From Candidatus Shapirobacteria bacterium (GTDB lineage Bacteria; Patescibacteriota; Microgenomatia; UBA12405; JAUWLS01), in assembly GCA_030613565.1 (NCBI GenBank), contig JAUWLS010000003.1:1-63841 (forward strand): a stretch of DNA of 63,841 nucleotides, given 5' to 3'. Below are positions 54,949 to 60,205 of this stretch, one piece after another. The position numbers were made by a program, and so were the translations under genes. The notes below the pieces were generated by a model, which was not told the origin of the DNA, did not search any database, and saw nothing but the letters and a program-made list of their open reading frames with translations. Within the stretch, counting starts at the first letter, position 1; each line of letters begins with the position of its first letter.

Positions 54949-55680
54949 ATGTTTAAAAAAATTCTTTTTCTTCTGCCCCTACTTTCCCTCCTTCCTCTCT
55001 CCAAAACCCTTCTTGCTCAGTCTTTTTCTTCCGACTCCTACTACATTCAAATGGGCAACTTCAACATGACTGGTGGTAAAAAAGAATCAGCCAACTACAG
55101 CCTTACCGACACTGTTGGTCAAACCTTTCAAGGCCAGTTTGATTCTACTGGTTATATAGTTGAAGCTGGTTTCCAATATATCCACAACATCTACCCCTTT
55201 GCTTTCAGCATCTCTGACTTAAACATCGACTTTGGCACTCTCTCTCCAGGAGCCCTAACTACCGACCAAAATGTTCTCACTGTCAACTACTACGGTGCTG
55301 GAGGTTACCAAGTCCTAGCCTATGAGGCCCACCCCCTTCGCCAAACTCAAACCTCCACCGACATTACCGACACTACCTGTGACGACACCACCTGTACTCA
55401 AACCCTTTGTCGTCCCTGGACCTCCACCTCTATCTACGGCTTTGGTTTTAATGCCGCCGGAGACGATGTTGACACTTCTGCCTCTAAATTTTCAGACTCC
55501 ACCTACTTTTGTCAGTTTTCAAACAACGAAGCCAGTGAAACTCATCAACCCGTCATGAGCTCAAGTGATGTTGGAGTAAATCGTCAGGCCACTATCACCT
55601 ATCAGGCTAATGTCTCTACTCTTCAAGAAGCTGGTGACTACGCCACCTCCATTGTCTATTTAGCCATTCCCTCCTACTAA
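54949..55680 (+). CDS. Secreted protein with WxL-like C-terminal domain
   Basis: Signal peptide; FGTLS, GGYQV, W...GFG and AGDY..IVYLA.PSY motifs shared with 56699-58159. Confidence 0.65.
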   Translation: MFKKILFLLPLLSLLPLSKTLLAQSFSSDSYYIQMGNFNMTGGKKESANYSLTDTVGQTFQGQFDSTGYIVEAGFQYIHNIYPFAFSISDLNIDFGTLSPGALTTDQNVLTVNYYGAGGYQVLAYEAHPLRQTQTSTDITDTTCDDTTCTQTLCRPWTSTSIYGFGFNAAGDDVDTSASKFSDSTYFCQFSNNEASETHQPVMSSSDVGVNRQATITYQANVSTLQEAGDYATSIVYLAIPSY

Positions 55681-56642
55681 TGAACCCTAAACTCAAAAAC
55701 TCTCTTTTTCTACTTCTCTTAACTCTCTTAAAAACCCTCAACCCACTCCCTACTCTCGCCCAAGAGTTCTCTCTCAAAGTCTCTCCTCCTTTGGTTGAAA
55801 TCCTTGCCCAACCTGGAACCGCCATCACCCAGGCCTACCAAATCAAAAACAATTCTCAAAAAGACATTCTTCTTACTACCATTTTAAAACCCTTCACTGC
55901 CTCCCAAAAACCTGGCCTCCCTTCCTATGACGTTCAAACCAATCCCAACCTACCTCCCCCTGTCTTCTCTTTAGGCAACTCTGACTTGAAAATCGGCGAC
56001 TCCTTTACTATTCCTGCCCAGTCTCAACAACAAATTGTTTTAAAAATCCGCACTCCTCCTAAAAACCTTCTTTCCGACTACTACTACACCCTCTTTTTTG
56101 CCCAAGTCAGCAACCCTCAAAGCTCATCCCTCTCTTCAGGGCAAGTCGGAACCAATCTTTTAATTTCTGTTTCCCCTGATTCAAACCCTCCCCGCGACCC
56201 CCAAACTCTCTCTTTTACTGTTCATCCTAAGTTTGCCGACCTTTTCTTTAGCAAAGTAAAATTCCAAGCCCTCATAAAAAACCAAGGTAAGACTCTCTTA
56301 AAACCTTTTGGTCAAATCCGCATCCAAAGATCTTGGCCTCCTACCTCCCAAGATTATTCTCCTCTTCTTATCCGTCCCGATAACATTCTTGCCGATTCTT
56401 CCCGCCCCCTCTCCTGTCTTTATGAAAACGATGAAACTCGTACTACATGTCAAGTTGACTCCTATCTTCCTCCCGGTCAATACCAAGCAACTCTCTCCTA
56501 CTGCACCAATCCTGATCCTAATCAAAAAAACCGAAACTGCCAAGAAACTACCCTCTACTTTTATGTCTTCCCTTACCTTGCTCTCCTTCTTCTTTTCTTA
56601 CCTTTCCTCTACTACCTCTTTCAAAAGAACAAAAAGGCTTGA
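55680..56642 (+). CDS. DUF916/DUF3324-like Ig-fold protein with C-terminal TM anchor
   Basis: Signal peptide; VSPPLVEILAQPG...YQIKN; IKNQGKTLLKPFGQI; C-terminal TM and basic tail. Confidence 0.65.
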   Translation: MNPKLKNSLFLLLLTLLKTLNPLPTLAQEFSLKVSPPLVEILAQPGTAITQAYQIKNNSQKDILLTTILKPFTASQKPGLPSYDVQTNPNLPPPVFSLGNSDLKIGDSFTIPAQSQQQIVLKIRTPPKNLLSDYYYTLFFAQVSNPQSSSLSSGQVGTNLLISVSPDSNPPRDPQTLSFTVHPKFADLFFSKVKFQALIKNQGKTLLKPFGQIRIQRSWPPTSQDYSPLLIRPDNILADSSRPLSCLYENDETRTTCQVDSYLPPGQYQATLSYCTNPDPNQKNRNCQETTLYFYVFPYLALLLLFLPFLYYLFQKNKKA

Positions 56643-56698
56643 CTTTGATACTCAACTCATCACATACTAAGCCAAGCCATTTTTTGCTCGATTAAACC

Positions 56699-58159: not shown

Positions 58160-58161
58160 AA

Positions 58162-59106
58162 ATGAAAAAAATACTTGCCCCTCTGTTCTTATTCTCCCTC
58201 TTCCTTCTCCTTTCTCTTCCTGCCAAAGCTCAATCCTCTCTCTCTTTAGTCGCTATCCCTCCTCGCCTTGAAATCACCGGTAACCCGGGAGATGTTATCA
58301 CCGAAACTATTAAGGTCCGAAATGAATCTACCACTACTCAATTTTTAAATGTCGAAATTAAAGACATTATTGTCAAAGACAAAGACGGCACCCCCATCAC
58401 CATTGACTCTCAACATCCCAATCGCTGGGCTGCCGCTCCCTGGATCCAAGTCTCTCCCACTAAATTCAAACTTGAAAGAGGCGAAACCTTGGCTCTCTCT
58501 TTAACTGCCATTATTCCCGATGATGCTCTTCCTGGTGGTCACTATGCTGTTGTCCTTCACTCTCCTGAAGCCCAAGTTGGTATAAACCAGTCCGGAAGCA
58601 GTATTGATGCCAATGTCGGCTCTCTCATCTACATCACTGTCCCCGGAGATATCAAAGAAGATGCCCGCGTCGTTAAGATGACCGTTCCCCCCTTCTCTGA
58701 ATATGGTCCGATTGATGTAAAAACTGAAATTGAAAACTTCTCTGATCTTCATGTTAAACCCAACGGTTCCATTTCTGTCTATAACTGGTTTGGTAAAAAA
58801 TCAGACGATCTTCCTTTAGATTCTCAAAACATCTTCCCCTACACCTCCCGCACTTATGAAAACATCTTAAATAGAAAATGGCTCTTTGGTCGCTACAAGG
58901 CTCAACTTGAAGCTGCCTATGGCACTACTGGTCAACTTCTTTTGGCCACTGTTTTCTTCTGGGTCATCCCTTGGAAACTTATCCTTATTGCTCTTCTTAC
59001 TATCACTATCATCATTCTTCTTGTTATCCTTTTTAAAAAGAAAAGGGATGAAAAGAATCTCAAAAAACTAGAAAATGATGAAATTTCCAAAAAAGCCAAA
59101 GCTTAA
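58162..59106 (+). CDS. DUF916/DUF3324-like (WxL-partner) protein with C-terminal TM anchor
   Basis: PPRLEITGNPG...IKVRN, PGGHYAVV, ENFSDLHVKPNGSI, WLFGRYKAQLEAAYG, FWVIPW and TM. Confidence 0.75.
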   Translation: MKKILAPLFLFSLFLLLSLPAKAQSSLSLVAIPPRLEITGNPGDVITETIKVRNESTTTQFLNVEIKDIIVKDKDGTPITIDSQHPNRWAAAPWIQVSPTKFKLERGETLALSLTAIIPDDALPGGHYAVVLHSPEAQVGINQSGSSIDANVGSLIYITVPGDIKEDARVVKMTVPPFSEYGPIDVKTEIENFSDLHVKPNGSISVYNWFGKKSDDLPLDSQNIFPYTSRTYENILNRKWLFGRYKAQLEAAYGTTGQLLLATVFFWVIPWKLILIALLTITIIILLVILFKKKRDEKNLKKLENDEISKKAKA

Positions 59107-60205
59107 TCTCCTCCTCACCTCCCTTTTCTTCCTTTTAACTCTCGCCATCCTTTCCCAACCCCTTCCTCACCCTGACCTCACCCCCTCCCACATCCTCGGC
59201 GATTCCTCTATTAACTGGTCTCATTCTCAAGGCTCTGCCCACACCCGCCAAAAAGTAACTGTCACCGCTACCATCGATGGCTATCTTCTTAATATGGTCG
59301 GTTGGACCTCTCCTCATGCCACTGTCCACCTCACTGCCACCCAAACTGACGCCAAACACGATACCTTGGCTGATTCTGACGGTCAATTCATCTTCTCCTC
59401 CCTCCTTCTTCCCAAAGAAACTGGTCTTTTTTGTTTCCTCTCTGAAGACACCGACTCCATCGCTTCTATTCCCTATTGCCTCACCCCTCCTCCTTCTCTC
59501 TCCGCTCTCTTTTCTCCCCACTCCTCCGTCCTCACCTCCCTCCCTCCTTCCTTAGACATTCTTGGAGACTCCTCAACTTTTAAAGTCTCCACCGACTCTG
59601 GTATTGTTCTTGCTCCCTCCGTTTCTTTAAATGAAACCAAACTCAAACAATACACCGACCTTGACACCACTGGTCGCACTGTCCCCAACTCTTTGGTCAA
59701 CATCTATCTTTCCAAAAAAAAAGAAAATCTTTTTCAAAAACTCTTCCCTCGCATTTTTTCTCAAGTTAAAGCTAATGATCAAAACACCAACCTCTATCAC
59801 TCTACTTTCTCCGACCCCGAAGGAAACTTTGTCTTTGACCTTCCCACTGACTCTGACTTAACTTATGAGTTCACCACTAACTCTGCTACCAACCACGGTC
59901 TCTCTGCCGAATCCAATCCCTTACGCTACCAACTCTACACCCCTCTTCAATGGATCTTCTTCATAATAAACTCTATCCTCTTCTCACTTTTAAAATGGCT
60001 ACTTAACCTTCTTACTACCCCCCTAGTCATCATTTTCATCCAACTCCTTATCCTGGCCCTCCTTCTAAAAAAATTCTTTCTTACTCCCCTTAAAGCCCAC
60101 CCTCTCCCCGCTCTTTACCAAAAGACTCTTGTCCCTCTATCTCATTACCAAACTTCTTTTTTGAAAACTAAAAAATATTTATCCTTTTTTCCTCTTCCTC
60201 ATTAA
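59075..60205 (+). CDS. Exported Ig-like-repeat protein with C-terminal membrane segment
   Basis: Two 'G.T.P...V...ADSDGQF.F / SDPEGNF.F' Ig-like repeats; N- and C-terminal hydrophobic segments. Confidence 0.6.
   Translation: MMKFPKKPKLNLLLTSLFFLLTLAILSQPLPHPDLTPSHILGDSSINWSHSQGSAHTRQKVTVTATIDGYLLNMVGWTSPHATVHLTATQTDAKHDTLADSDGQFIFSSLLLPKETGLFCFLSEDTDSIASIPYCLTPPPSLSALFSPHSSVLTSLPPSLDILGDSSTFKVSTDSGIVLAPSVSLNETKLKQYTDLDTTGRTVPNSLVNIYLSKKKENLFQKLFPRIFSQVKANDQNTNLYHSTFSDPEGNFVFDLPTDSDLTYEFTTNSATNHGLSAESNPLRYQLYTPLQWIFFIINSILFSLLKWLLNLLTTPLVIIFIQLLILALLLKKFFLTPLKAHPLPALYQKTLVPLSHYQTSFLKTKKYLSFFPLPH

Follow-up and report, generated by a model that had tools for sequence, protein, structure and literature searches.

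What do six closely packed genes of an uncultured bacterium build on the surface of its cell? Ultra-small bacteria of the candidate phyla radiation (CPR) live attached to other cells, and little is known of how they hold on. The genes lie in a 63,841-nt stretch of DNA from a Candidatus Shapirobacteria bacterium (contig JAUWLS010000003.1; 'the window' below means this whole stretch). The locus under study comprises positions 54949–60205 and the gene directly upstream, that is, 54261–60205, where six genes on the + strand follow one another with nearly no spacing: U, T, B1, A, B2 and R. An earlier sequence-only reading, which overlooked U, described a WxL/Csc-like or usher-less fimbria-like surface complex, an appendage or lattice assembled by membrane-anchored chaperones. 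Our analysis indicates that the locus is very probably a Pam-type pilus operon of Shapirobacteria-like Microgenomatia (Patescibacteria/CPR), a divergent member of its kind, and that the most likely product of its genes is a thin, adhesive fibre of Pam type on the cell surface. The idea of an appendage with membrane-anchored chaperones finds support in matches to PamT, to the chaperones of pam operons and to the DUF916/WxLIP family; that of a lattice is not supported.

The Pam system was described in Candidatus Mycosynbacter amalyticus by Troman et al. (bioRxiv 2026; PMC13278184), the source of the NCBIfam models NF058579 and NF058581. Its two-domain pilins PamA and PamB form filaments in which, as seen by cryo-electron microscopy (cryo-EM), the linker strand of one subunit is donated into the truncated immunoglobulin (Ig)-like C-terminal domain of its neighbour (PMC13278184). 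The pam operon also encodes the PapD/FimC-like chaperones PamC and PamD, each with a C-terminal membrane helix, as well as a donor-less tip (PamT) and a membrane-anchored terminator (PamR), and it has no usher (PMC13278184). Pam pilins are called exclusive to CPR, with PamA homologues reported in Microgenomatia (PMC13278184). We favour the Pam-type reading of the present locus because T matches PamT from end to end and shares a domain with A, while a profile of the B2 family finds the chaperones of pam operons; because the model of B2 is a two-domain, PapD/WxLIP-like chaperone with a transmembrane helix, as are PamC and PamD; because the linker of A is conserved and unpaired, R bears a similar strand and the gene order is that of Saccharimonadia; and because the operon is kept in most of 80 related loci, neither usher nor PapD_N is found, and a phylogenetic tree groups B1 and B2 with the Pam chaperones.

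The tip-like subunit T and the pilin-like subunit A

T consists of a signal peptide, a conserved N-terminal module of ~65 amino acids (aa) and a Pam-type C-terminal acceptor domain (residues ~92–243) that ends in ...AGDYATSIVYLAIPSY. The protein matches the NCBIfam model of PamT (NF058579) at an E value of 1.2e-15 over profile positions 7–241 of 241, and the model Pam_pilin_C (NF058581) at 6.4e-9. Pam_pilin_C is likewise matched by all 45 relatives of T (45/45; best E 2.8e-12), none of them seen above the cut-off. Judged by these matches, T is a distant homologue of PamT that falls short of NCBI's criterion for an equivalog.

T and A have their last ~150 residues in common. BLASTP aligns the two over 137 columns (E 4e-8), a hidden Markov model (HMM) of the C-terminal domain of the A family finds T at 1.9e-23, and the T-family HMM finds A at 1.3e-17. 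That both subunits end in a homologous domain, as the sequence-only reading had it, is confirmed by these values, and the motifs FG.L, GGY.V, W....GFG and AGDY...VY.A..F/Y are near-invariant columns among 120 relatives of A and 45 relatives of T. In all, 532 relatives of A were found. A itself begins with a signal peptide (residues 1–36), followed by an N-terminal beta-sandwich (~37–286), a linker and the C-terminal acceptor domain (299–486), and its AlphaFold 2 (AF2) model is all-beta, with two domains and a predicted local distance difference test (pLDDT) score of 92.6. Among the weak Foldseek matches of A are CfaE, CfaB (prob 0.99), PapG, CsuE and the TasA fibre. Sequence searches of the PDB with T, A and the A profile found nothing.

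No segment of the A family is more conserved than the linker between the two domains. Across 120 sequences E287, R290 and A293 are invariant, and V289, V291, T292, T294, V295 and P297 are at least 90% conserved; in the monomer model the segment is unpaired as a strand, at pLDDT >90. An unpaired, invariant linker is what would be expected of a strand that pairs in trans, and in the Pam cryo-EM work the inter-domain linker is the donated strand (PMC13278184). The linker motif was found in 0 of 45 members of the T family. T is accordingly the candidate tip, since it has an acceptor domain and lacks a donor strand.

For a comparison with known pam operons, the PamT model was run on 401 evenly drawn Patescibacteria genomes and found a match in 112, above the cut-off in 8. 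The reference set consists of seven operons, each with a strong match to PamT (of the nine best matches, eight lie above the cut-off). HMMs of T and of the C-terminal domain of A match PamT and the chaperone-adjacent pilins of these canonical operons, the pilins at E 1e-4 to 2e-8. Saccharimonadia pilins end in ...GIYSTTLTYVATATF or ...YTTKINYIAAPQY and the subunits of the study locus in ...GDYENRLVYTATATF and ...GDYATSIVYLAIPSY, with the C-terminal motif G.Y...(I/L).Y.A...(F/Y) in common; the motif of A, ...AGDYENRLVYTATATF, resembles the Saccharimonadia ...GIYSTTLTYVATATF. The order pilin, chaperone, anchored protein is also the same in Saccharimonadia operons, where a PamR-like gene follows the chaperone. 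For the present locus the order given earlier, a secreted subunit with an anchored protein, twice over, and then an Ig-repeat anchored protein, stands, as does the topology.

The N-terminal module of T (residues ~24–90) deserves a remark of its own. It is highly conserved and contains three S-x-x-Y-x-(I/L)-like hairpin segments. The module may be a separate and widespread one, because positions ~5–80 of the PamT model alone match many other CPR proteins of 250–450 aa.

Two membrane-anchored chaperones and their relatives in Bacillota

B1 and B2 are homologous to each other (BLASTP E 7e-10; HMM 4e-55, for B1 with the chaperone HMM, and 5e-31). The AF2 model of B2 (pLDDT 93.1) shows beta-sandwich domains at residues 29–160 and 168–268 and a C-terminal transmembrane helix at 271–313. 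A Foldseek comparison, the check that the sequence-only reading had suggested, ranks the WxLIP of Enterococcus faecium first (9i1y_A, 1.5e-11; 9i25_C, 3.3e-11) and then the chaperone-usher chaperones CfaA, YadV, FimC, CsuC and Caf1M. Against the PDB, the B2 family profile finds EfmWxLIP1 at E 0.007. Against the chaperones of the canonical pam operons, the B2-family HMM gives E 1e-24 to 5e-49 over the full ectodomain.

The sequence-only reading had called both anchored proteins DUF916-like, which is right for the family and not for its two members here. PF06030 (DUF916) is weakly matched by 99 of 121 relatives of B2 (best E 8.8e-6), and hhalign aligns the B2 family with nine Bacillota WxLIPs, taken from plasmids, at 97% (E 1.7e-11); domain 1, stripped of signal peptide and anchor, still gives 90% (E 1.7e-6). 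B1 and B2 themselves have no Pfam match, PF06030 included. Comparison of domain 2 with DUF3324 is not significant by profile, PF11797 itself not having been searched genome-wide. In canonical pam operons, two of the chaperones score above the cut-off that Pfam sets for PF06030, as do proteins in 92 of the 401 Patescibacteria genomes. The Pam chaperones and the WxLIP (DUF916) chaperones of Bacillota are one family. This conclusion goes beyond the preprints that described the two pili in 2026, neither of which mentions the other's system (PMC13278184; 10.64898/2026.10.17.759780). PF06030 is also found above the cut-off in two control genomes, Thermotoga maritima and Lactococcus lactis; its presence in the former means that the chaperone family reaches beyond Bacillota and CPR.

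We built a maximum-likelihood tree of 56 chaperones. A 99/98 branch parts the chaperones encoded beside WxL subunits, from Bacillota and CPR alike, from those encoded beside Pam subunits, which argues that chaperone type follows subunit type and not taxonomy. B1 and B2 fall on the Pam side of this branch, with the chaperones of Saccharimonadia. B1, a fast-evolving paralogue of B2, has a long branch and forms the sister group of the B2 clade (93/91); the sister relation indicates a duplication inside Microgenomatia. B1 probably serves T, and B2 probably serves A, the subunit encoded just before each.

In an October 2026 preprint, Sleutel et al. describe the elr WxL cluster of E. faecalis as a donor-strand pilus whose membrane-anchored chaperone is the DUF916/DUF3324 protein ElrE, and call this type of pilus confined to Bacillota (10.64898/2026.10.17.759780). 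True pairs of WxL and DUF916 proteins occur in CPR too. The WxL family PF13731 is matched in 30 of the 401 Patescibacteria genomes, above the cut-off in 10, and many of these matches, weak and strong, directly adjoin a DUF916 gene; the WxL-type proteins concerned are clear homologues of Bacillota WxL proteins (hhalign 99%). Such pairs of WxL protein and DUF916 chaperone are seen in several CPR families, where the last strand often reads F/Y-T-V/L, not W-x-L.

The subunits of the study locus show no significant match to the WxL domain family. No Pfam match to PF13731 was found in T, in A, in 45 relatives of T, in 10 Saccharimonadia pilins or in the source genome. By hhalign, with the C-terminal domain of A, T, and both pooled with the Saccharimonadia pilins as queries and with Bacillota, CPR and pooled WxL profiles as targets, the values of 0.1–17% are not significant, and only the last hairpin aligns (...AGxYxNxITYxA in Pam with ...GxYxSIxTFTV in WxL). 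HMM scans between Pam and WxL subunits gave nothing in either direction. As the domains show no significant similarity, we do not claim that the subunits are homologous.

How, then, do the two pili relate? We lean somewhat towards the view that the Pam pili of CPR and the WxL (Elr/Csc) pili of Bacillota are sister branches of one ancient system without an usher, built on membrane-anchored chaperones and donor strands. The Pam acceptor and WxL domains would then be diverged versions of one fold, as the order of motifs and the last hairpin hint without reaching significance. As in the WxL pilus, the chaperone of the present locus combines a signal peptide with two Ig-like domains and a transmembrane helix at the C-terminus; WxLIP is the best structural match of B2, with sequence homology over domain 1. 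The small and the large subunit likewise have a C-terminal domain in common, and the presumed logic of the locus is donor-strand exchange with no usher. Unlike the WxL pilus, its subunits have no WxL domain match and a last strand of Y-x-A in place of W-x-L, the putative donor strand is an inter-domain linker here and an N-terminal extension there, and the anchor is a membrane helix, whereas the WxL pilus uses an LPxTG protein and a sortase. DUF3324 is moreover not detectable by sequence in domain 2, and B1 and B2 stand on the Pam side of the tree.

Proposed assembly, the anchor protein R and competing explanations

In R, a signal peptide precedes two beta-sandwich domains, and a membrane anchor lies at the C-terminus. 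Pfam assigns it CarboxypepD_reg at E 9e-8 (two stretches, a beta-sandwich of CarboxypepD_reg/Big_6 type), and within its family CarboxypepD_reg is found in 31 of 57 members and Big_6 in 16 of 57. Near the N-terminus of mature R, a strand VTVTATID resembles VRVTATVD of the A linker. The pattern [VI]x[VI][ST]Ax[VI][DGEN] occurs in four of the 1278 six-frame open reading frames (ORFs) of the genome, A and R among them. It is present in 119 of 120 relatives of A and in 23 of 65 relatives of R, in the latter nearly always within the first ~80 residues, ahead of the first domain; the families of T, U, B1 and B2 have none. R was picked out by this looser pattern but not by a strict position-weight matrix of the A linker, in which the invariant columns E and R outweigh the others. 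R is therefore a putative terminator and anchor in the position held by PamR: a protein with an A-like strand near its mature N-terminus would cap the fibre and anchor it, as proposed for PamR and ElrB.

From these comparisons we infer strand exchange, an order of assembly, a pairing of chaperones with subunits and roles for R and U, and we propose the following course. All products would be exported by Sec. At the outer face of the membrane, B1 and B2 would capture the unfolded subunits and complete their truncated Ig-like C-terminal domains by donor-strand complementation. T would start the fibre as its tip, and copies of A would add by donor-strand exchange, in which the linker of the incoming A (EGVRVTATVDPT) displaces the chaperone strand from the groove of the previous subunit. 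The strand VTVTATID of R would cap the last A, and the C-terminal anchor of R would tie the fibre to the membrane. Neither an usher nor a sortase would take part. By analogy with the Mycosynbacter work, the fibre would serve host attachment, probably by contacting the host cell.

Like the Pam system, the locus has a putative tip homologous to PamT and a pilin modelled as two domains, in which a conserved linker leads to an acceptor domain of Pam type. Its two PapD-like chaperones, exported by Sec and ending in a membrane helix, are clearly homologous in sequence to those of canonical pam operons, and an anchored beta-sandwich protein comes after the chaperone; neither system has an usher or a sortase, and both belong to CPR lineages. 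The present locus differs in its strong divergence, all NCBIfam scores lying under the curated cut-offs, and in its single major pilin, compared with PamA, PamB and PamE. Each subunit here is directly followed by its own chaperone, the chaperone duplication lying inside Microgenomatia, and R is of CarboxypepD_reg/Big_6 type, whereas PamR is FnIII/RbmA-like. The locus also has an extra polytopic membrane protein, U, and in many of its relatives the half-operons are split by housekeeping genes.

Several observations weigh against the Pam-type reading. T scores 58 bits with the PamT model, for which the curated cut-off is 240, and 36 bits with Pam_pilin_C, for which it is 55; A has no direct NCBIfam match. 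The whole-protein Foldseek matches of A are weak and mostly to multi-domain proteins such as integrins, and Pam pilin structures are absent among its PDB matches, by sequence or by fold. R and PamR-like proteins show no significant sequence similarity (hhalign E 0.21), the strand motif may simply belong to the first domain of R, and U was not found in the Saccharimonadia pam operons examined.

Could the same genes build something other than a polymer? In the older sense of a WxL/Csc-type complex, B1 and B2 would be permanent stalks, each in a stable 1:1 complex with its subunit for binding peptidoglycan or a host. Such a static arrangement was proposed for WxLIP in 2023 by Hassan et al. (PMC10599100). 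It would suit a locus in which a gene for an anchored partner comes after every subunit gene and the B2 family is related to DUF916/WxLIP, and the WxLIP of 9i25 was solved bound to a WxL protein. We nonetheless regard it as unlikely. WxL clusters have since been shown to be donor-strand pili with DUF916 chaperones (10.64898/2026.10.17.759780), the subunits here lack a WxL domain match, and A shares its build of two domains and a linker with filament-forming PamA; an invariant linker, together with an anchored R that bears a strand, fits a polymer with a terminator better than a static complex. Still less probable is that the genes encode secreted Ig-fold proteins with no relation to one another, for example adhesins or the parts of a surface layer, clustered without shared assembly and alike only through common beta-sandwich folds. 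Ig-like folds do draw weak matches, for example to RbmA, ciliary proteins and integrins in Foldseek and to FixG_C and fn3_5 in Pfam (the latter two with B2 relatives). Yet PamT, the Pam pilin domain and the chaperones of pam operons all have significant sequence homology to proteins of the locus, the gene order is kept across dozens of species, and the genome holds exactly one such set.

A classical chaperone-usher pilus, its usher encoded elsewhere or missed, also has to be considered. The fold of B2 matches CfaA, FimC, CsuC and Caf1M at E 1e-8 to 6e-10, and the model of A weakly matches CfaB, CfaE, PapG and CsuE. As in the Pap/Fim, CFA/I, Csu and Caf1 systems, the chaperone has two domains of this shape, the subunits are Ig-like with a terminal G-x-Y strand, and donor-strand complementation and exchange are presumed. 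Unlike those systems, the locus has no usher and no PapD_N/PapD_C signature, its chaperones are anchored by a C-terminal membrane helix that classical chaperones lack, and its pilin carries an extra N-terminal domain. The 97.6%-complete genome has no match to the usher family PF00577 or to PapD_N (PF00345), both of which were found in the E. coli control, and PF00345 is not among the 25 Pfam families most matched by the relatives of B2, where PF06030 appears in 99 of 121. We rejected this explanation on the genome-wide lack of PF00577 and PF00345 and give it hardly any weight. The absence of an usher noted by the sequence-only reading is in agreement with this result. The absence of a sortase motif, also noted there, holds for the locus: reading the five proteins T, B1, A, B2 and R revealed no LPXTG, and the two sortases of the genome are encoded on other contigs, none at the locus. 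The Pam-type reading is the one that we retain.

Genomic setting, gene U and significance

The coordinates of the locus and of its neighbours are collected in Table 1. Start and stop codons lie close together inside each of the groups U-T-B1 and A-B2-R: the stop of U lies 1 nt ahead of the ATG of T, and the stop of T and the start of B1 overlap by one base (TAATG). B1 and A are separated by 56 nt. The sequence-only reading had given A a promoter element of its own. A promoter-like hexamer pair does exist there; it is a 9/12 consensus match only, and such sites are not clearly enriched in the region (14, against 8.5 +/- 2.7 in shuffles). The source genome, of 858 kb in 36 contigs, contains exactly one such gene set.

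Table 1. Genes, segments and neighbouring features of the locus, in positions of the window
Feature	Positions	Strand	Description
PIN toxin and MazE-like antitoxin pair	52639-53260	-	~1 kb upstream of the operon
U	54261-54947	+	228 aa; polytopic membrane protein
T	54949-55680	+	243 aa; signal peptide only; PamT-like tip subunit; ATG at 54949
N-terminal part of T	54949-55220	+	includes the conserved module
Acceptor domain of T	55222-55677	+	Pam-type C-terminal domain
B1	55680-56642	+	320 aa; signal peptide and C-terminal hydrophobic segment 289-315
Promoter-like pair TTGACT-18-CATACT	56639-56668	+	in and just before the gap upstream of A
A	56699-58159	+	486 aa; signal peptide only; PamA-like major pilin
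Putative donor (linker) strand of A	57557-57592	+	residues 287-298, EGVRVTATVDPT
B2	58162-59106	+	314 aa; signal peptide and C-terminal hydrophobic segment 257-295
R	59075-60205	+	376 aa; signal peptide, two beta-sandwich stretches, hydrophobic segments 291-339
N-terminal strand of mature R	59255-59278	+	residues 61-68
Fic/DOC-domain gene	60232-61104	-	directly downstream of the operon
Fic/DOC-domain gene	61277-62311	+	divergent from the preceding gene

The chain of U contains about five hydrophobic segments, closes with an amphipathic helical tail and has no match in Pfam. A profile search with U finds 610 clusters (50% identity) at E<=1e-3, and the best 150 relatives from these are short stand-alone proteins, mostly of 170–250 aa and none longer than 316 aa. 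U was also considered as a truncated sensor kinase; as far as these best 150 relatives and the lack of a Pfam match go, it is not one. Directly upstream of T the gene is co-conserved, with the order U-T-B1 in 43 of 80 related loci. In the Microgenomatia branch, U could have a part in assembly or in regulation that has not been recognised before.

These 80 loci are the best of 520 species genomes that encode a relative of B2, and most are labelled Shapirobacteria. The order A-B2-R is near-constant among them, with R after the A-B2 pair in 64 ORFs, and A is duplicated in some. Elsewhere among the loci, genes that have no relation to the operon and face the other way part its two halves, with gaps of 3–4 kb between B1 and A. 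A hidden adhesin was looked for in these gaps and not found; one of their genes encodes a conserved protein of ~880 aa. Many public records with an operon of the Shapirobacteria type bear the title 'uncultured Gammaproteobacteria bacterium', one bears 'Candidatus Methanoperedens sp.', and both look like placeholder or mis-binned taxonomy.

The flanks are unrelated to the operon. Upstream lie ComEA, the PIN/MazE pair and an NYN nuclease, and downstream two Fic genes, a nucleotidyltransferase and an FtsX permease. Both Fic/DOC genes encode the HPFxxGNGR motif (Pfam E 2e-22 and 5e-16), and the small nucleotidyltransferase gene is next to them. A MazE-like gene also belongs to the conserved neighbourhood of the Mycosynbacter pam operon (PMC13278184); its occurrence near both loci may be coincidence. 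The window as a whole (1–63841) has a very strong strand composition bias, with a GC skew of -0.41. In 2-kb or 5-kb windows the skew runs from -0.24 to -0.65, except around 32–34 kb, and the values for the 36 contigs lie between 0 and +/-0.4. The coding strand is reflected in protein composition, genes on the + strand being rich in S/L/P/T and those on the - strand in G/E/V.

Pam pili are so far the only structurally defined appendage specific to CPR, and they come from one cultured species of Saccharimonadia. In the Microgenomatia version shown by the present locus, a single tip and a single major pilin go with two chaperones particular to the lineage, an anchor of another kind and an additional membrane protein. 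Taken alone, the locus is moderately interesting; what deserves to be followed is the link that the chaperone family makes across phyla. If true, this link, which takes in enterococci, listeriae and lactobacilli, would join two discoveries of 2026 into one class of pilus in bacteria without an outer membrane, and the statements of both preprints on distribution would have to be corrected. The tools of a tractable system, such as the reconstitution of ElrE and ElrD in E. coli, would then become usable on an uncultured one.

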